Below are positions 2,708 to 27,863 of a stretch of DNA of 64,000 nucleotides, piece by piece. Numbering within the stretch: the first letter of the stretch is position 1; each line of letters starts with the position of its first letter. The notes beneath the pieces were generated by a model, which worked only from the letters and a program-made list of their open reading frames with translations, ran no database searches and was not told the origin of the DNA. Source of the DNA: Escherichia coli (GTDB lineage Bacteria; Pseudomonadota; Gammaproteobacteria; Enterobacterales; Enterobacteriaceae); the NCBI RefSeq assembly GCF_030013595.1, contig NZ_CP122768.1. The stretch is one strand, 5' to 3'. The position numbers and the translations under genes are program-made.

Positions 2708-4360
2708 ATGGCACAAGTCATTAATACCAACAGCCTCTCGCTGATCACTCAAAATAATATCAACAAGAACCAGTCTGCGCTGTCGAGTTCTATCGAGCGT
2801 CTGTCTTCTGGCTTGCGTATTAACAGCGCGAAGGATGACGCCGCAGGTCAGGCGATTGCTAACCGTTTTACTTCTAATATTAAAGGCCTGACTCAGGCTG
2901 CACGTAACGCCAACGACGGTATTTCTGTTGCACAGACCACCGAAGGCGCGCTGTCCGAAATCAACAACAACTTACAGCGTATTCGTGAACTGACGGTTCA
3001 GGCTTCTACCGGGACTAACTCTGATTCGGATCTGGACTCCATTCAGGACGAAATCAAATCCCGTCTGGACGAAATTGACCGCGTATCCGGTCAAACCCAG
3101 TTCAACGGTGTGAACGTACTGGCGAAAGACGGTTCGATGAAAATTCAGGTTGGTGCGAACGATGGCCAGACTATCACTATCGACCTGAAAAAAATTGACT
3201 CTGATACGCTGGGGCTGAGTGGGTTTAATGTGAATGGTGGCGGTTCTGTCGCTAACACTGCTGCATCTAAAGCTGACTTGGTAGCTGCTAATGCAACTGT
3301 GGTCGGCAACAAATATACTGTGAGTGCGGGTTACGATGCTGCTAAAGCGTCTGATTTGCTGGCTGGAGTTAGTGATGGTGATACTGTTCAGGCAACCATT
3401 AATAACGGCTTCGGAACGGCGGCTAGTGCAACGAATTACAAGTATGATAGTGCAAGTAAGTCTTACTCTTTTGATACCACAACGGCTTCAGCTGCCGATG
3501 TTCAGAAATATTTGACCCCAGGTGTTGGTGATACCGCTAAGGGCACTATTACTATCGATGGTTCTGCACAGGATGTTCAGATCAGTAGTGATGGTAAAAT
3601 TACGGCAAGCAATGGAGATAAACTCTACATTGATACAACTGGGCGCTTAACGAAAAACGGCTCTGGTGCATCTTTGACTGAGGCTAGTCTGTCCACACTT
3701 GCAGCCAATGATACCAAAGCGACAACCATTGACATCGGCGGTACCTCTATCTCCTTTACCGGTAATAGTACTACGCCGGACACTATTACTTATTCAGTAA
3801 CAGGTGCAAAAGTTGATCAGGCAGCTTTCGATAAAGCTGTATCAACCTCTGGAAACAATGTTGATTTCACTACCGCAGGTTATAGCGTAAACGGCACAAC
3901 TGGCGCTGTAACAAAAGGTGGTAATTCGGTTTATGTTGATAACAACGGGGCGTTGACCACATCTGATACTGTAGATTTTTACCTACAGGATGATGGTTCA
4001 GTGACTAACGGCAGCGGTAAGGCAGTTTATAAAGATGCTGACGGTAAATTGACGACAGATGCTGAAACAAAAGCAGCTACGACAGCCGATCCCCTGAAAG
4101 CTCTGGACGAAGCCATCAGCTCCATCGACAAATTCCGCTCCTCCCTCGGTGCCGTTCAAAACCGTCTGGATTCTGCGGTGACCAACCTGAACAACACCAC
4201 TACCAACCTGTCTGAAGCGCAGTCCCGTATTCAGGACGCCGACTATGCGACCGAAGTGTCCAATATGTCGAAAGCGCAGATCATTCAGCAGGCCGGTAAC
4301 TCCGTGCTGGCAAAAGCTAACCAGGTACCGCAGCAGGTTCTGTCTCTGCTGCAGGGTTAA
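2708..4360 (+). CDS. fliC: Flagellin (550 aa; conserved N/C termini, divergent central domain)
   Basis: N-terminus [55 protein letters not shown] and C-terminus ...[11 protein letters not shown] are canonical flagellin; middle is Thr/Ser/Gly-rich variable region. Confidence 0.9.
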
Positions 4361-4402
4361 TCGTCGTACCTGATTAACTGAGACTGACGGCAACGCCAAA
4401 TT

Positions 4403-4502
<100 letters not shown>

Positions 4503-14349: not shown

Positions 14350-14425
<76 letters not shown>

Positions 14426-14479
14426 GTTTAAAAGGCATCGGCGTCAAGCGGATGTCTGGCTGAAAGGCCTGAAGAATTT

Positions 14480-14553
14480 GGCGCGTTAACAAAGCGGTTA
14501 TGTAGCGGATTGCAAATCCGTCTAGTCCGGTTCGACTCCGGAACGCGCCTCCA
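14480..14553 (+). tRNA. cysT: tRNA-Cys (GCA)
   Basis: GGCGCGTTAACAAAGCGGTTATGTAGCGGATTGCAAATCCGTCTAGTCCGGTTCGACTCCGGAACGCGCCTCCA read directly. Confidence 0.92.
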
Positions 14554-14565
14554 CTTTCTTCCCGA

Positions 14566-14652
14566 GCCCGGATGGTGGAATCGGTAGACACAAGGGATTT
14601 AAAATCCCTCGGCGTTCGCGCTGTGCGGGTTCAAGTCCCGCTCCGGGTACCA
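14566..14652 (+). tRNA. leuZ: tRNA-Leu (TAA), long-variable-arm type; 3' part lies inside prophage attL
   Basis: GCCCGGATGGTGGAATCGGTAGACACAAGGGATTTAAAATCCC...GGTTCAAGTCCCGCTCCGGGTACCA read directly. Confidence 0.92.
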
Positions 14653-16992: not shown

Positions 16993-19214
16993 GCTGTTTG
17001 CTCCTGTGCTGCGGTGAGGGCGGTGAGGCGTTCGGTTTTGATTTCATTCAAACGGCGCAGGCGCGAACCAAGATAAGTTGAATACTCCTTATCACCTTTG
17101 GATTCTGCGGCCTTGCGGTGAACTTCTACTTCCCGCGCAATAAGGCCATAGACTTTATTAACTTCATTGGGGGTTACGGCTGCAGCCAGTGTTTTGGCAA
17201 CACCTGAGAGTCGTTCATCCAGTTCTTCACGCAGTCGGGTAGCATCCTCTGCTTTCTCGCTTGCCTTCTTAATACTGTATTCTGTATTCAGCTCGGCGGT
17301 GTAGGCACTATCGTTATGCATATCCATATAAACATCTGCCGCAAATCCCAGATGAGATAGTGCTTTGACGGTGGCATCAGTAAGAGACTTTTTGGAGGCC
17401 TCTTTTTCCATTACCAGTGCCCCTTTGTTATTTTTTGATATGTAATCCGTGTGGCCATATGACGGAATAAATCCTTTCACTCCGTTCCAGATGTACCAGA
17501 GATCTATCCGGATGGTGTGTACTGACAGGCAGAACAGGGAACCGTCAGCATCCCTGACAGGTTTTTGTCCAATAATTTTCCCTGTCTGATCCTGTATAGG
17601 TTCAAGTAATGGCACACCGCGATCCACTCGCTCCTCCTTGATTTCAACTCCCCAACCAATGCCTTCCATTCCCAGCACTTCAGTCGCACGCATCAAAATA
17701 TATTGTGCGCGTATGGAGTGCAGTCCTGCACCGTAATCATTATGTGTGACATACGCAGGATCGGTCCGCTGAACGCGATTCCAGATAGCCAAATTTGCTT
17801 TGCTCTGGTCATCATTCATTGCTGACAGATAATGCTCCATGCGAATTGATGCAGTTTTTTCCTCGGCATGGGGCGGCTCAACCAGCGCGTCAACGTTCTG
17901 CACCAGGTCTTTTACCTGCTCGCTAAGTTTTTCTTGTGGAGGAGTCTCTTCTGCCGGGGTAATAGCTGCAGGTTCCCTCTGTGATACGGCGTTATTTTCA
18001 GGTACGTCATACACATGGCGAGGCGTGACAAACTGCTCACGCAACTGCTGCAAACTACGTTCTCCAGCATTTGCTGCTTCGCTTTTTTCGCCCTGATTTG
18101 AGGGTGTTTCTGACATCATTCCATCAATTGAGAATCGCCCGCCGCCGTGGTTGGTGACTTTTACATCATCCTTTGGTGCTGTTTCCTTTGGCTTCTCTTC
18201 AACAGCATTTGCATCACGCTGCCCGTTAGCTTGCAGCCAGTTGTCGATGTGACTGCGCAGGGATTGCGGGAAGTGGTACGTGTCTTTTGCGGGGGCGCTC
18301 TGAATAACACCGAATACTGATGCGCGGTCATAGGCAAGGATCTGATCCGTTGTGCGCAAGGCCATTGACCAGCGTTTAAAATCCTCCCGATCCTGGCTGA
18401 TTATTTCGTCTGCCGCTTTCAGGACGCTGGGGGTGATTTTTTCCGGGCCAACGGGTAACAGGGCGCAGGCAATTTCACGATCCAGTGTGGCGTGAGTCTG
18501 TTGGTAAGGACGTGCGGATGCTGTTTCTGGTTTTACCTCCGGCAGCATTTCATCGCGTTTACCGGGATTCTCTACCCATTTTTTTATAAATTTGGAGATA
18601 GTCCAACTGGTCGGGTTTTGTTCCTGGGTATCGCAACTTGCCAAAATTGCATGTACCAGATTATTCAATCCAGCAATATGCATGTACTCGATGGGCTTAC
18701 ACGCCACCATGGCATCAAGAACGATGCGGTTAAACGCGTCAACCTCATCCTCACTGTCAGTATCACTGTTGTCGAGCATCTCCAGGTATTCACGCGTCTG
18801 CGCAAGCAATTCACTGTCGACTTCGTTGGCGTCGTGGCTGAACAGCAGGACGGCGGCGAAGCGTTCACGAGCCGGCAGTTTCATCAGGTCGTTAACCTGT
18901 GCGATATCTGCTGAACCGCTATCTGAATCAGCGGGGGTGTTAACTACCCATTTTTCGCCATCAAAACTGTGTTCTGTGGCAAACGTCTCATCAAACTCAC
19001 CGACGCCAGGGCGCGGTTGGCCCGGGGCATCTTCCCAGATTTTAGGTTTGAAATAGTTGTCGCCGTGGTCAGGGTAGGCTTCCCACAATTTGCCGATGAT
19101 GATGTTCTCGGCAACTTTTTTGTTAGGGGCGTCGATGGCGATGGCCAGCGCCGGGATCGCGCCGTTTTTGAGCGCGCCTTTTTTCGCTTCTAACAAGCCG
19201 TTAAAGATGGTCAT
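16989..19214 (-). CDS. Large early protein with C-terminal Erf/Rad52-type single-strand annealing domain (tentative)
   Basis: 741-aa ORF, RBS GAGGAAAGACCA before ATG; C-terminal ...KEASKKSLTDATVKALSHLGFAADVY resembles the Erf signature; N-terminal ~450 aa acidic, unrecognised. Confidence 0.5.
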   Translation of the reverse strand: MTIFNGLLEAKKGALKNGAIPALAIAIDAPNKKVAENIIIGKLWEAYPDHGDNYFKPKIWEDAPGQPRPGVGEFDETFATEHSFDGEKWVVNTPADSDSGSADIAQVNDLMKLPARERFAAVLLFSHDANEVDSELLAQTREYLEMLDNSDTDSEDEVDAFNRIVLDAMVACKPIEYMHIAGLNNLVHAILASCDTQEQNPTSWTISKFIKKWVENPGKRDEMLPEVKPETASARPYQQTHATLDREIACALLPVGPEKITPSVLKAADEIISQDREDFKRWSMALRTTDQILAYDRASVFGVIQSAPAKDTYHFPQSLRSHIDNWLQANGQRDANAVEEKPKETAPKDDVKVTNHGGGRFSIDGMMSETPSNQGEKSEAANAGERSLQQLREQFVTPRHVYDVPENNAVSQREPAAITPAEETPPQEKLSEQVKDLVQNVDALVEPPHAEEKTASIRMEHYLSAMNDDQSKANLAIWNRVQRTDPAYVTHNDYGAGLHSIRAQYILMRATEVLGMEGIGWGVEIKEERVDRGVPLLEPIQDQTGKIIGQKPVRDADGSLFCLSVHTIRIDLWYIWNGVKGFIPSYGHTDYISKNNKGALVMEKEASKKSLTDATVKALSHLGFAADVYMDMHNDSAYTAELNTEYSIKKASEKAEDATRLREELDERLSGVAKTLAAAVTPNEVNKVYGLIAREVEVHRKAAESKGDKEYSTYLGSRLRRLNEIKTERLTALTAAQEQTA

Positions 19215-19244
19215 TGGTCTTTCCTCATTACAGGTCAGTGGTCT

Positions 19245-19565
19245 TTAGTAGGGGATTTCATCAGTATCTGGCGTGTATTCGATGCAAAGTAACTGCTGGA
19301 TTTTGTCATCGATAGCAGCAATACGCTGTTGGGCGTCGGCGACTGTTTTCTGTTTTTGCTCATACAGCTGCTCGACCTGCAAACCGATGATGTCGATTGG
19401 CTGGGGCTGGTTGACGGTAATTTCAATTTCGCGGCTTTCCAGAAGGATGTACCTGTCTGGAAAATTTTTTGACATATCAACAGTCGCAACAAGCAGCTTT
19501 TCGTGGCTGAAAGTTGAAGTTGCATAATTAATAAAGAGTGTTACTGGGATGGTGCGCGCTTCCAT
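19245..19565 (-). CDS. Hypothetical early-left operon protein
   Basis: 106-aa ORF with AAGGAG RBS; first gene after the ORF-poor leader. Confidence 0.45.
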   Translation of the reverse strand: MEARTIPVTLFINYATSTFSHEKLLVATVDMSKNFPDRYILLESREIEITVNQPQPIDIIGLQVEQLYEQKQKTVADAQQRIAAIDDKIQQLLCIEYTPDTDEIPY

Positions 19566-20416
19566 AGCGACTCCTTGGTGATGTATACTCGGGACCGATC
19601 AGCGAATATTGATCAGCTTCCATAGCGTCAGTGTCGTTGGTCTTTCCTCATCACAAGTTTGGTCACTTGTGATAAATCCGAATGGTTTGGTCGCCGTTCG
19701 GGGTAACTGGCCCGCCTTGTGCGGGTCTTTTGCTATCTAAAGGGTGCCGGTTACGTTTCCGGCGTCGTTATGTTTCCATCACGACCGTACGGGGCTGGTC
19801 TTTCCTGTTTTGAGCTGGTCAGGCTCATGGTCAACGCTGGTCAGGCGTGGTACTTCCTCCGGTCTTTCCCTGGTGTCACGCTGCGGGTTTGGCCTCTCCT
19901 GTTGGGGACTCAGGCACAGCGATAAAACCTGGCTGTGTGAAAAAATGGCCCATCGTGCGGACTGGGCAAAGGCTAAACACAGCAAATTGATGATGGGCGC
20001 CCGGAATCGAACCGGGTAACGGGCAGGGAGTTCCCGTTAAACACCTGTTCACCACAACCGGGAGCGCACTCCGCCATTTCAAAATTTAACGACAAAGCTC
20101 AAAGTTGAGTCGATGAAGTGCGCTCTCGTGTTGTAGCCAGGACTCTTCCCTGGTGGTCACACCGTATCGCCTTGATGGTGAATCAATCGCTCATACCTGG
20201 CTGTGGCTTGCACATTCCGGCTAGCTGCTATGGAGACAACGCGTTAAGGCTCCGCTTCCATCCAGACCGCTTCGACACATGTGCCATATGCCGGCGAAGT
20301 CTTTCCCTCTGTCATCGTGTTGGCGCCGACGCGCAAAATTTGATGCCGTCTTTCCGGCTGTCAGAACGTGTTTCTGAACAACTGCCGCTGGGTAAGCGTT
20401 GTTGATGAAAGTGACT

Positions 20417-20436
20417 TTACAATTTGTATTTGTAAT
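20417..20436. promoter_or_regulatory. Putative left operator (OL-like) palindrome
   Basis: ttacaatttgtatttgtaat with TTACAA / TTGTAA half-sites, same half-site as at 21010..21048 on the other side of the repressor gene. Confidence 0.4.
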
Positions 20437-20561
20437 GGTCAACGTATTTTTAAAAAATAATTTGTAGTTAGGGGCAAAAAAATATTCACTGTGTAAAGGT
20501 GTTTTTGTGTTAGGGGGAAAGTTGCATGCCAGCAGCGGCTGGCCTGGAAATTTGAACTGAA

Positions 20562-20975
20562 CTATTTTGTCTGGTTTTTGGCTTCAAGTAGTTCTTTTAG
20601 CAGTAGATCGAAGTGCTCTCTTTTTTCTTTTAGCTCATTGATTAATTTATTTTTTTCGCTCTCAGGCAGTCCTCTGAATAGTTGCAGTAGAGCCTGTTCT
20701 TGCGGGGTTAGTTCTTGATTGTAATTACCCGGGTGTAGCGTGGATTCATCCAAATATTCACCTTCATTCATGAAGAAAAAATGAACAGGGTATCCGGTCA
20801 CTTTTGCTAGCTTGTCTAATTTATCTTTTCTTGGAGTTACCCCATTACACCATGCCTGAACTGATTGAGCCGTAACCCCAATATGGCGAGCTAACTCAGA
20901 TTGAGACCAGCCTAAGTCTTTTAGAATCCGTTGTAGTCGGCTAGCAAAAGCCATGTTTTTCGTTTTTGTGTTCAT
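20562..20975 (-). CDS. Prophage repressor (CI/RacR-like, XRE-family HTH)
   Basis: HTH LGWSQSELARHIGVTAQSVQAWCNG; divergent from cro-like gene; exact start uncertain (track ORF extends to 20990 with TTG). Confidence 0.6.
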   Translation of the reverse strand: MNTKTKNMAFASRLQRILKDLGWSQSELARHIGVTAQSVQAWCNGVTPRKDKLDKLAKVTGYPVHFFFMNEGEYLDESTLHPGNYNQELTPQEQALLQLFRGLPESEKNKLINELKEKREHFDLLLKELLEAKNQTK

Positions 20976-21009
20976 ACCGTAAGGATACAAGGTTTAATTG
21001 TAGGGAGCA

Positions 21010-21048
21010 TTGCAAATATAATTTGTAATTACAGTTATGATTTGTAAT
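21010..21048. promoter_or_regulatory. Putative right operator region (OR-like) between repressor and cro-like gene
   Basis: ttgcaaatataatttgtaa palindrome plus a second atttgtaat half-site. Confidence 0.45.
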
Positions 21049-21073
21049 GATGGCGCGGACACAAGGAGTCCAT

Positions 21074-21304
21074 ATGGATAAACAACTGCAAGACAAAATT
21101 CTTTCCGTAATGAGTCAATCCGAGTTAGGGCGGCGATTAGGGAAAAAACCACAAACGGTAAGCCTCTGGTTCAAAGGAAGGGTTCCCGGTGAAGAGGTTT
21201 TGCGCACATCTGAAGCTCTTGAATGGCGCGTGACCCCCCATGATCTTAGACCGGATCTTTACCCAAACCCAGATGACAGCTTGCCTAAAACGAAAGCAGC
21301 TTAA
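21074..21304 (+). CDS. Cro/YdaS-like HTH regulator
   Basis: AAGGAG RBS before MDKQLQDKIL...; HTH SQSELGRRLGKKPQTVSLWFKG; divergent from repressor. Confidence 0.55.
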   Translation: MDKQLQDKILSVMSQSELGRRLGKKPQTVSLWFKGRVPGEEVLRTSEALEWRVTPHDLRPDLYPNPDDSLPKTKAA

Positions 21305-26649: not shown

Positions 26650-26976
26650 ATGACTAAAAATACTCGTTTTTCCCCCGAAGTCCGTCAGCGGGCGATTCGT
26701 ATGGTTCTGGAAAGTCAGGATGAATATGACTCACAGTGGGCGGCAATTTGTTCCATTGCCCCAAAGATTGGCTGTACGCCGGAGACTCTGCGTGTCTGGG
26801 TTCGCCAGCATGAGCGGGATACCGGGGGCGGTGATGGTGGGCTCACCAGCGCTGAACGTCAGCGTCTGAAAGAGCTGGAACGTGAAAATCGTGAACTGCG
26901 CCGCAGTAACGATATCCTTCGCCAGGCTTCCGCTTATTTTGCGAAGGCGGAGTTCGACCGCCTCTGGAAAAAATGA
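26650..26976 (+). CDS. IS3-family transposase OrfA (HTH)
   Basis: [41 protein letters not shown]...; ends in AAAAAATGA frameshift window (A-run 26968-26973). Confidence 0.85.
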
Positions 26977-27863
26977 TGCCACTGCTGGATAAGCTGCGTG
27001 AGCAGTACGGGGTCGGACCGGTATGTAGCGAACTGCATATTGCCCCGTCAACGTATTACCATTGTCAGCAACAGCGACATCATCCGGATAAACGCAGTGC
27101 CCGTGCGCAGCACGATGACTGGCTGAAGAAAGAGATACAGCGCGTATACGATGAAAATCACCAGGTATACGGTGTGCGTAAAGTCTGGCGTCAGTTGTTA
27201 CGGGAAGGTATCAGAGTGGCCAGATGCACTGTGGCACGTCTCATGGCAGTTATGGGACTTGCCGGTGTTCTCCGGGGTAAAAAGGTCCGCACTACCGTCA
27301 GCCGGAAAGCCGTTGCCGCAGGCGACCGCGTAAACCGTCAGTTCGTGGCAGAACGACCTGACCAGCTGTGGGTGGCTGATTTTACTTACGTCAGCACATG
27401 GCAGGGCTTCGTCTATGTGGCGTTTATCATTGATGTGTTTGCCGGATACATCGTGGGGTGGCGGGTCTCATCGTCTATGGAAACGACATTCGTGCTGGAT
27501 GCGCTGGAGCAGGCGTTGTGGGCCCGTCGTCCGTCTGGCACCATCCATCACAGCGATAAAGGCTCTCAGTATGTGTCACTGGCCTATACGGAGCGACTAA
27601 AAGAAGCCGGATTACTGGCATCAACAGGGAGTACAGGCGACTCGTATGACAACGCGATGGCTGAGAGCATCAATGGTCTTTACAAAGCGGAGGTAATACA
27701 CCGTAAGAGCTGGAAAAAACGTGCAGAAGTGGAACTGGCCACACTAACGTGGGTGGACTGGTATAACAATCGACGATTGCTGGGAAGGCTGGGCCATACT
27801 CCTCCGGCAGAAGCAGAAAAAGCTTATTATGCTTCCATCGGAAACGATGATCTGGCAGCCTGA
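26973..27863 (+). CDS. IS3-family transposase OrfB (DDE catalytic domain), -1 frame relative to OrfA
   Basis: 296 aa with DDE integrase-core-like region (...[31 protein letters not shown]...[10 protein letters not shown]...[15 protein letters not shown]). Confidence 0.85.

Follow-up and report, generated by a model that had tools for sequence, protein, structure and literature searches.

A conserved structured RNA and an array of non-coding RNA modules in the early-left leader of an Escherichia coli prophage without an N-like gene

How does a prophage without an N-like gene express its early-left operon when some 0.85 kb of DNA with no convincing gene lies between the early-left promoter (PL) and the first protein that it serves? 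The question is raised by a prophage of Escherichia coli (RefSeq assembly GCF_030013595.1, contig NZ_CP122768.1), which lies in a 64,000-nucleotide stretch of DNA, hereafter the window, whose numbering is used throughout. The interval concerned, positions 19566-20416, had been described in an original prediction, made from the sequence alone, as a leader poor in open reading frames (ORFs) that might represent decayed genes or else a structured RNA, such as a small RNA (sRNA) or a put-like antitermination element. Our analyses argue for RNA. We consider it rather probable, at about 60%, that the interval is the untranslated 5' part of the PL transcript, an array of non-coding RNA modules together with one convergent sRNA gene, and that it both makes small RNAs and gates the genes downstream. 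The modules of the array are common to many otherwise unrelated temperate enterobacterial phages.

The coding content of the interval is as meagre as had been described. Between the promoter and the first early-left gene, encoding a protein of 106 amino acids (aa), there are only short overlapping ORFs of at most 95 aa, and the eight of them that were compared with Pfam and PHROGs gave no match (best E-values 0.06-0.1). By the ORF list, Pfam and PHROGs, no N-like protein is encoded in 19566-20416. A 73-aa ORF at 20221-20442, which contains ARRRQ, was considered as a candidate N-like protein and rejected, as its TTG start lies within the promoter, it has no family match, and its frame is disrupted by indels in phage BUCT708. 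The latter is syntenic with the prophage leader and 72% identical in pairwise alignment, and the lengths of many of the indels are not divisible by three. Of the 5426 complete E. coli genomes, 480 contain the same 1.2 kb, mostly at 95-99% identity, and the Prokaryotic Genome Annotation Pipeline (PGAP) leaves the homologous 1 kb unannotated. In homologous phages no intact proteins span the interval and conserved structure is present, and both results favour RNA.

The principal element of the interval is a 165-nt RNA on the minus strand (20133-20299), hereafter the core, which our covariance model R1 detects with 133.6 bits (E 2.6e-35). The R1 search of the window returned a single copy, 108 nt past the inferred PL transcript start (~20407), and none after the early-right promoter (PR). 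The core consists of a hairpin (H1), a long variable hairpin (H2), a second variable hairpin, an H-type pseudoknot and a terminal hairpin. There are at least five helices plus the pseudoknot, and six, the pseudoknot included, are supported by pair counts. Throughout the family, stem 1 of the pseudoknot (ACGA/UCGU type) encloses the 5' strand of stem 2 (CACC/GGUG); in the window the two stems read UUGA/UCAA and CACC/GGUG. The loop of the terminal hairpin is GAAGAGU in the window and GAAGAG(A/U) across the family. The single-stranded runs UGGCACAUG, AGCGGUC, UAGCCGGAAUGUGCAAG and GGCGAU are invariant or nearly so family-wide, and GUAGCCGGAAUGUGCAAG is almost invariant, with five single-base variants among 131 sequences; the sixth sequence that does not match it is without the element altogether.

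This structure was derived by eye from compensatory changes and then tested by pair counts; automatic prediction with RNAalifold on a MAFFT alignment gave a poor structure, and the hand-built one was used in its place. In the first alignment, of 27 representatives, 90.1% of the cells held standard pairs, against 29-49% when the partners were slid, both sides changed in 14 of the 30 pairs, and the covariation score lay above all 500 shuffles. An independent set, drawn from one-genome-per-species bacterial assemblies and with its alignment fitted to the model except at the pseudoknot, gave 94.4% paired cells and double changes in 16 of 30 pairs, and none of 500 shuffles scored as high. The core is thus an RNA conserved through compensatory changes. 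Since G-U pairs are frequent in it, its strand is that of the PL transcript. A candidate long-range helix, GCACAU/AUGUGC, is nearly invariant on both sides, and its single variant (sequence L183) is uncompensated. We also considered that the core of the window might be circularly permuted; a simpler explanation is that the stem next to it is a separate module, which also stands 5' of the core in Tyrion-type phages. No Rfam family matched the core when the window was searched to an E-value of 10, and none matched it in 17 related loci at gathering thresholds.

The distribution of the core is wide. It is present in 1732 of the 5426 complete E. coli genomes, in up to four copies per genome and with 319 copies on plasmids, and no annotation lies beneath it among the E. 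coli records listed. A conserved 18-mer of the core matched more than 120 viral contigs among the matches listed, and a pattern from another part of the core recovered the same family. Its carriers include P1, P7, epsilon15-like phages and mEp460-type lambdoid phages, the mEp460-type array being found in 124 phage records. A distant nucleotide search gave matches of two kinds, namely the syntenic BUCT708 (72%) and stretches of ~170 nt (70-76%) in unrelated phages, where they are mostly annotated as non-coding. The genomic settings are diverse. The core stands between the terminase and portal genes in the epsilon15-like phages SPN1S, Tyrion and PAT1, near the lysis genes in Klebsiella phage SopranoGao, and between a tRNA (anticodon CAU) and the ban helicase gene in the P1-like SJ46; in the P1-like phages L007, L013, L020 and L029 it starts 20 nt past the encoded CCA end of tRNA(CAU), upstream of ban. 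Phage SfV has lost the core and kept the modules downstream of it. A short linker, UAUUUGGUUGUAACA, is common to P1-like phages and several lambdoid arrays.

The same picture emerged from bacterial genomes. In the bacterial collection, 24 of 36 exact 17-mer matches were true cores, with scores of 115-166 bits; by our estimate, chance alone would give ~35 matches to a 17-mer in so large a collection. Of these true cores, 22 are in Enterobacterales records, and the other two lie on short contigs (1.7-3 kb) of metagenome-assembled genomes labelled Bacillota and Lachnospiraceae. These two contigs (L210 and L222; cores of 158 and 140 bits) are most likely mis-binned fragments of enterobacterial phages.

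Immediately after the core the minus strand of the window forms a long stem-loop (20055-20133), with CAACACGAGAGCGCACUUC (20133-20115) as its 5' strand and GGAGUGCGCUCCCGGUUG (20072-20055) as its 3' strand. Its duplex energy is -27.1 kcal/mol, and its 42-nt apical insert carries the conserved GUCGUUAAAU, which recurs in the stem inserts of other phages. Inspection of the flanks of all core loci revealed a common plan, in which the core is followed by a stem of 16-20 bp and the stem by the next module. The 5' strand of these stems opens with CAAC, the 3' strand closes with GUUG and then UGG, and the insert measures 4-90 nt. The module that comes after the stem varies by phage, and may be tRNA-Arg(UCU), an RNA beginning with UGAAUGCGCAGG, an RNA with GCUGUGUGUAGUC and a terminator, or others. 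Among related phages, both the core and other modules, including RNAs of the sRNA-17 type, described below, and RprA-like RNAs, are followed or flanked by such stems.

With stems counted at -16 kcal/mol or better, related arrays contain 91 distinct stems, whose median z-score against shuffled 5' strands is -4.75; shuffles were used because CAAC..GUUG is its own reverse complement, which makes the antisense strand invalid as a control. The interiors range from GAGAGC/GCUCUC to wholly different sequence, with the CAAC/GUUG ends constant. Given that the interior varies and the ends stay fixed, the stem appears to be a structural signal rather than a sequence signal of the boxA type. A boxA-like GCUCUUU does appear in some array stems, and is not conserved. 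Nus-dependent antitermination of the rrn type, through boxA and boxC (YGCUCUUU...GUUGUGGUG), was accordingly rejected as a conserved feature of the stems, many of which are unrelated inside (for example AUUCCGAUUAUCGUUG), and a boxA so placed would be sequestered within the helix. The inserts of some stems (SPN1S at ~2400-2500 on the minus strand; phage L101) hold one or two perfect T-arm-like hairpins, such as CUGGUUCAAUUCCAG and AGGGUUCGAAUCCCU; because of these hairpins, the CAAC/GUUG stems may descend from, or mimic, elongated tRNA acceptor stems. Untranslated polycistronic transcripts whose processing sites are defined by flanking stems and tRNA-like structures are familiar from rRNA and tRNA operons, and from the T4 tRNA cluster with its stable RNAs. 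The array is likewise untranslated and stem-bounded, but its stems are distinguished by their fixed CAAC/GUUGUGG ends and conserved apical inserts.

In all of 42 distinct contexts the first ORF of at least 70 aa lies well downstream of the core, typically by ~400 nt. A strict intrinsic terminator stands between the core and this ORF in 20 of the contexts, and eight carry tRNA-Arg(UCU). In four contexts the core lies 100-200 nt ahead of the ORF with no terminator between them, so that it is part of the mRNA there. In Tyrion (L004), an int-alpA RNA motif (Rfam RF02996, 44 bits) is located at 447-511 on the minus strand, ~1 kb downstream of the core and in the same orientation, and may be another non-coding cassette of the same unit.

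One module of such an array has already been mapped as an RNA. The sRNA-17 of E. coli K1 strain RS218, from an mEp460-like prophage, was defined by rapid amplification of its 5' and 3' cDNA ends and by Northern blot, and has no Rfam match (PMC7719688). The sequences in the supplement of that paper match the mEp460 array, and mEp460 was used as the reference to place sRNA-17. In mEp460, the 193 nt counted back from the terminator U-run start precisely at GUUGUGGUGAAUGCGC, where the first stem has its 3' edge, and the rows of the supplementary alignment start at the same two ends as this 193-nt stretch. We infer that the sense strand of sRNA-17 is that of the array, because it is the sole strand that ends in a terminator. 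The detection of sRNA-17 indicates that array modules accumulate as discrete RNAs in the lysogen, however its 5' end arises. The window has an RNA in the same slot, predicted to run from GUUGUGGUGAA, where the first CAAC/GUUG stem ends on its 3' side, to the next terminator; the two bodies differ past the first 11 nt, and the window version would measure ~120 nt and carry an RprA-like seed. The sRNA-17-type RNA of SfV also carries an RprA-like seed in place of its own. The annotation of mEp460 places two ORFs, mEp460_036 and mEp460_037, on the opposite strand of the array; both are probably spurious. The literature on Pas sRNAs and on Stx2c phages held nothing that bears on this locus.

The window counterpart of sRNA-17 is a predicted sRNA at 19938-20058 on the minus strand, whose boundaries were set by analogy with sRNA-17. 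It comprises GUUGUGGUGAA, a 6-bp hairpin (20021-20038), a perfect T-arm-like hairpin, CCCGG-UUCGAUU-CCGGG (20000-20016), and then AUUUGCUGUGUUUAGCCUUUGCCCAGUCCGCACGAUGGGCCAUUUUUU; the RprA-like seed UGCUGUGUUUAGCC occupies 19971-19984, and a terminator-like site, GCCCA..UGGGC followed by CAUUUUUU, 19940-19967. The Rfam model of RprA (RF00034) aligns here with 34 bits (E 0.11) and in BUCT708 with 50.2 bits (E 0.0012). By direct count, the seed and terminator are identical to those of authentic E. coli rprA, a reference verified in 5421 genomes, at 38 of 47 positions (~81%). The 12-nt UGCUGUGU(G/U)UAG does not vary among the window, BUCT708, SfV and phage L083, which carry three different terminators, and the pattern GCUGUGU(G/U)UAG(U/C)C occurs in 13 of the 42 distinct array contexts. 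Such invariance ahead of three different terminators, together with this recurrence, suggests that the seed has been selected.

Judged by these alignments, the element is RprA-like in its 3' half only, and we have not filed it as a member of RF00034. It has the conserved 3' region and the terminator in common with RprA, whereas the 5' rpoS-pairing domain of RprA aligns poorly and the T-arm-like hairpin stands in its place. RprA, a Hfq-dependent host sRNA, is made from a promoter under Rcs control (PMC5861431), whereas the RNA of the window sits in a phage early operon. A tRNA gene or pseudogene at 19992-20078 was considered and rejected: ARAGORN finds none in the interval, the best match of the Rfam tRNA clan, tRNA-Sec, reaches 19.3 bits where the gathering score is 47, and only the T-arm-like hairpin is left. 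BUCT708 is without this hairpin, yet keeps the RprA-like part. The RprA-like RNA of BUCT708 (L001, OM816834.1), which is recorded as a 'Stenotrophomonas phage', contains 19 nt, AAUUGCUGUGUGUAGUCUU, identical to enterobacterial rprA; because of this identity, and because the phage is syntenic with the leader of an E. coli prophage, its recorded host looks doubtful. At 3389-3508 on the minus strand of BUCT708, the RprA model also aligns the 5' hairpin of RprA (UUAUAAAUCAA) to the conserved stem insert GUUGUUAAAUCAA, and a shared ancestry of chromosomal rprA and the phage modules is a possibility.

The second sRNA of the interval is predicted on the opposite strand. The palindrome with 8-bp arms that had been noted at 19651-19672, tcacaagt-ttggtc-acttgtga, behaves as an RNA hairpin with covarying arms, and belongs to an RNA of the plus strand, opposite the PL leader. 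This IsrB-like antisense RNA (19637-19733, plus strand) would consist of a 5' segment UUGGUCUUUCCUCAU, hairpin 1 (19650-19673, the palindrome), hairpin 2 (19678-19701) and a terminator, GGCCCGC-CUUGU-GCGGGUC followed by UUUUGC (19709-19733), which a terminator search found; both hairpins have a UUGGUC loop. Every variant adopts the same fold. The arms of hairpin 1 differ completely between four lineages and always pair, with both sides changing in seven of nine pairs and 100% pairing, and its loop is constant. In hairpin 2 several pairs are G-U, and two of its nine pairs are U-G in the window. As these G-U pairs would be A-C mismatches on the minus strand, the hairpins belong to the plus strand, on which the T-run of the terminator also lies in every variant. 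The covariation here and in the core bears out the suggestion that the interval encodes structured RNA, sRNAs included. The Rfam isrB model (RF01386) scores 33.3 bits in a relative (L075), against a gathering score of 35. Like IsrB, a Hfq-binding sRNA of Salmonella islands and prophages, the RNA has three hairpins, a UUUGGUC loop and a terminator of the GCCCAC type; it differs in being antisense to the PL leader and in carrying UUGGUC three times.

The predicted target of these loops is a motif that the original prediction had noticed as repeated on the minus strand of the leader. The motif, GGAAAGAC, has ten copies in the whole window against 1.74 expected, a number reached in none of 100 shuffles. 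Five minus-strand copies start in the interval, at 19640, 19798, 19862, 20299 and 20348, so the repetition stands; it is not confined to the leader, all ten copies lying on the sense strand of the two early operons. At least four copies form the GAGGAAAGACC(A/G)(A)AUG context of real gene starts (19223, 16039, 21870 and 24600). The GGAAAGACC motif is a phage ribosome-binding context, GAGGAAAGACCAAUG, and not a signal of the nut or put type. After the copy at 19640 comes an AUG in BUCT708-type phages, and an ACG in the window. Two UUGGUC loops of the IsrB-like RNA are complementary to the context GAGGAAAGACCAAUG. If its 5' end lies at or before 19637, the RNA also includes the 15-nt UUGGUCUUUCCUCAU, a perfect complement of AUGAGGAAAGACCAA, which occurs in the leader and at the ribosome-binding site (RBS) of the 741-aa gene of the operon.

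Small phage RNAs whose loops pair with repeated short targets overlapping an early-operon RBS are known as the immunity RNAs C4 of P1 and sar of P22. By analogy, we infer that the plus-strand RNA may be an anti-RBS antisense RNA in the manner of C4. The likeness would lie in the loop-to-RBS pairing, which is predicted here; there is no sequence relation to C4, and the Rfam C4 model gives no match in the window. In mEp460 (L128; 1679-1867 on the minus strand, and 3916-4469), a C4 antisense RNA (83.6 bits) and an IsrK RNA (67 bits) are found beside the Rha antirepressor gene, a region that resembles the immI-like second immunity region of P1.

These elements suggest how the leader may work. When PL fires, RNA polymerase would transcribe the array. 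The ~120-nt RprA-like RNA would begin at the GUUGUGG boundary, its 5' end arising either through processing or from an internal start, would end at the terminator near 19940, and would act in trans through its invariant seed UGCUGUGU(G/U)UAG. Only those polymerases that read past the terminator at 19940 would reach the 106-aa and exonuclease genes, making the leader an attenuator; as no other sigma-70-like promoter was found on the minus strand between this terminator and the first gene, the early-left genes should need terminator read-through. The antisense IsrB-like RNA, with UUGGUC present three times, could pair with GACCAA in the leader and with the RBS context GAGGAAAGACCAAUG, and so hold early-left expression down. 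The core is the best candidate for what might let transcription, or the transcript, survive a leader of 840 nt that is untranslated and contains a terminator, and this is the least certain step of the scheme.

Several observations weigh against this reading. The strand of sRNA-17 was taken from its terminator and is not expressed in this way by the paper that defined it, whose authors assign to sRNA-17 an ArcA-regulated promoter of its own (PMC7719688). A comparison with Rfam had been suggested for the interval, and it produced no match for the core and scores below threshold for the two predicted sRNAs: the RprA-like stretch, at 34 bits, stays below the gathering score of 70 bits here as it does in BUCT708, and isrB, at 15.2 bits, stays below its 35. 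The fold of the predicted RprA-like sRNA is not unusually stable (z -1.87). A promoter search for the IsrB-like RNA found none (TATACT at 19584-19589 is a candidate), and when trans targets of this antisense RNA were ranked by duplex energy, the proposed ones did not rise above background. The core cannot be strictly required for early-left expression, because SfV lost it and keeps the downstream modules, and in P1-like phages it lies inside an operon after a tRNA and not beside a promoter.

What the core does is accordingly the part on which explanations diverge, and the comparison with put is the natural starting point. The put RNA of HK022 is ~70 nt long, has two stems in a V shape and is present in both early operons (PMC9378689). 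Put and the core are both structured RNAs just past the early promoter of a lambdoid phage without N, with terminators further on. The likeness ends there: the putL-like RNA annotated in HK639 measures 126 nt against the 165 nt of the core, the core also occurs in non-lambdoid phages, and the window has one copy, after PL only. With filters off, R1 scored at most 7.1 bits anywhere in HK022, and at most 3.8 bits in the HK639 region with the annotated putL-like RNA. On these scores the core is not a homologue of put. Of the put-like element envisaged for this leader, a possible analogy of function stands; a match to the put of HK022 or HK639 does not, and the architecture is different.

Such an analogy is at the centre of one possible explanation, which we advance tentatively: the core would be a cis-acting, protein-independent antiterminator or anti-Rho element, put-like in action but unrelated, whose nascent RNA binds polymerase or blocks Rho and so carries transcription through internal terminators and the untranslated stretch, the sRNAs being by-products. 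The lack of an N-like gene speaks for it, as do the terminators that separate the core from the first gene in 20 or more of the 42 contexts and the position of the core within an mRNA or its 5' untranslated region in four of them. A promoter that agrees with the consensus at 9 or more of 12 positions ends 7-123 nt ahead of the core in 12 of 33 distinct upstream contexts, compared with 21% in shuffles, and several further promoters before the core are visible by eye. That the single-stranded runs are invariant hints at contact with some conserved host machine, and others have suggested a put-like RNA for LLS, an N-less lambdoid phage with a repressor most similar to that of an mEp460-type phage (PMC12315714). 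The same explanation has to accommodate the lack of homology to put in HK022 and HK639, a single copy in the window with none after PR where HK022 has put in both early operons, and the absence of the core from SfV. It fits poorly with P1-like phages, where the core is mid-operon after a tRNA, and with epsilon15-like phages, where it belongs to a small unit between late genes. As for nut elements, hairpins with GAAAGA or GAAGAG loops are present, and the window has CGCUCCC where some stems of relatives have the boxA-like YGCUCUUU in their 3' strand. The composition of C over G, taken as an indicator of Rho sites, gave no strong bubble, and is an uninformative measure.

The core could also be a stable RNA that is released by processing and that binds or mimics a host component, as a nuclease decoy or a partner of RNase P, Hfq/ProQ or the ribosome, a possibility that we hold about as plausible as a role in elongation or termination, and still doubtful. 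It is bounded by stems of the processing type and adjoins tRNA genes, 20 nt past the tRNA CCA in P1-like phages; some of the units in which it is found are self-contained, having an operator-controlled promoter and terminators of their own; phages of different lifestyles carry it with almost no change in sequence; and it reaches four copies per genome and 319 copies on plasmids. Against a released RNA, several contexts have no signal for a 3' end between the core and the next ORF, and the likenesses to RNase P RNA and 4.5S RNA that were considered were short, lay in variable parts, and did not hold up.

Conserved junction nucleotides, variable peripheral hairpins, a pseudoknot and a position in a 5' leader would also suit a ligand-sensing riboswitch, and arrays need defined cleavage points, such as a self-cleaving ribozyme would provide. 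We regard both as unlikely, and less likely than the two preceding roles: no terminator or sequestered RBS that could serve as an expression platform directly follows the core, the next terminator being ~165 nt off, the downstream genes have no common metabolic theme, and no known family matches even to an E-value of 10.

The repeats themselves could be read at the level of DNA, as recombination sites like the attC sites of integrons that shuffle RNA cassettes. Modules are indeed shuffled between phages, with mosaic joints near the stems, and the repeat ends are conserved as the interior varies. This explanation is very improbable, given that the ends (R)CAAC/GUUGUGG do not fit RYYYAAC/GTTRRRY (there is a U at the second R position), that no recombinase is associated with them, and that G-U pairs in the stems and an RNA end mapped at GUUGUGG favour a role as RNA, with which a role in recombination is not mutually exclusive. 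Weakest of all, and hardly credible, is the view of the interval as decayed early genes with orphaned RBSs in the copies of GGAAAGACC: the motif is a ribosome-binding context, a start codon present at 19640 in BUCT708 is lost in the window and a 37-aa ORF is annotated in the distal part of BUCT708, but base-paired stems with compensatory changes, indels not in threes, ORFs without a family match and the non-coding nature of the same modules in unrelated phages largely refute decay for 19938-20299 and 19637-19733, and leave to it at most a few tens of bases around 19640 and part of 19740-19870.

The remaining parts of the interval can be read in the same order as the PL transcript. The PL-like promoter (TTGACC-17 nt-TAAAGT, 20442-20414, minus strand) overlaps the operator-like repeats ACAAATACAAATTGTAA and is the sole sigma-70-like site that a search of the minus strand from 19200 to 21100 returned; where relatives differ in their immunity region, conservation of the leader sets in at CAUCAAC, a few bases after the -10 hexamer. 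The 5' leader of the transcript (20300-20407, minus strand), read from the sequence and the alignment with BUCT708, shows on inspection the hairpins CAACAAC..GUUGUU, CAGAA..UUCUG and GCCG-GAAAGA-CGGC, and two copies of GGAAAGAC. It is conserved with BUCT708-type phages, the indels sitting in loops.

After the terminator of the RprA-like RNA comes a lineage-specific block (19740-19937, minus strand), which the alignment with BUCT708 shows to be conserved. It includes the hairpins CACAGC..GCUGUG (19915-19937) and GCCGG-AAACGUAA-CCGGC (19746-19763), two copies of GGAAAGACC and two of CUGACCAGC. Positions 19810-19935 are more than 90% identical to BUCT708, and the flanks ~72%. Among phage records the block is found in BUCT708 and BUCT709 only, and it is replaced or shortened in some close relatives (L190 and L200).

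At the distal end, the 31-codon upstream ORF that had been noted is in place (19528-19623, minus strand), and overlaps the start of the 106-aa gene out of frame. In BUCT708-type phages its frame starts at the canonical GAGGAAAGACCAAUG, and the same AUG is ACG in the window, where a substitute AUG comes from an insertion of 17-20 nt that duplicates CGCUAUGGAAGC, the sequence at which the 106-aa gene starts. The duplication is seen as GCTTCCATAGCG at 19565-19576 and 19617-19628 in plus-strand coordinates, the minus strand reading CGCUAUGGAAGC. The insertion is absent from relatives of the BUCT708 and L190 types, and in the L190 type the frame has no start codon.

The first early-left protein gene (19245-19565, minus strand) encodes the 106-aa protein, assigned to PHROG 2479 (E 2.4e-50), behind an RBS AAGGAGU, and is followed by the 741-aa gene of the exonuclease family (PHROG 2489). 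On the other side of the promoter, the immunity region comprises a cI-like repressor gene (20562-20990, minus strand) and a cro-like gene (~21075-21304, plus strand). The prophage adjoins the glyW-cysT-leuZ tRNA genes; this cluster of tRNA-Gly(GCC), tRNA-Cys(GCA) and tRNA-Leu(UAA), at 14350-14652 on the plus strand, lies just left of the integrase end and is probably the integration site. In the early-right region, an apical loop-internal loop (ALIL) pseudoknot (Rfam RF01497, 119 bits; 26931-27047, plus strand) marks the frameshift site of an IS3-family transposase, and a near-identical prophage (H1) has its IS3 copy within the early-left exonuclease gene instead.

To conclude, our work describes a highly conserved structured RNA that is carried, without annotation, by roughly one in three complete E. 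coli genomes, by P1 and P7 and by Shiga-toxin phages; PGAP marks nothing at its place, and phage annotators put spurious ORFs over it. As a whole, the leader is a variation on phage leader RNAs and phage-borne sRNAs, in which the core may represent a new class. Tentatively, this would be a class of phage RNAs with a conserved host machine as their target, most plausibly a protein-independent antiterminator or anti-Rho element, unrelated to put, of N-less phages such as mEp460, cdtI, the Stx2c type and the present prophage and of their arrays, with the stems delimiting an unrecognised system of sRNA cassettes that includes mimics of host sRNAs. For early-operon expression in N-less lambdoid phages, on which there have so far been only 'put-like' guesses, the core offers a concrete candidate that can be mutated. 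Within this modular layout the published sRNA-17 can be understood as a cassette that belongs to a larger system. The repeated presence of the RprA 3' seed in phages suggests deliberate interference with RprA targets or with Hfq, and an antisense RNA directed against the phage's own RBS context would be a possible second layer of control on the early-left genes, beside the repressor.

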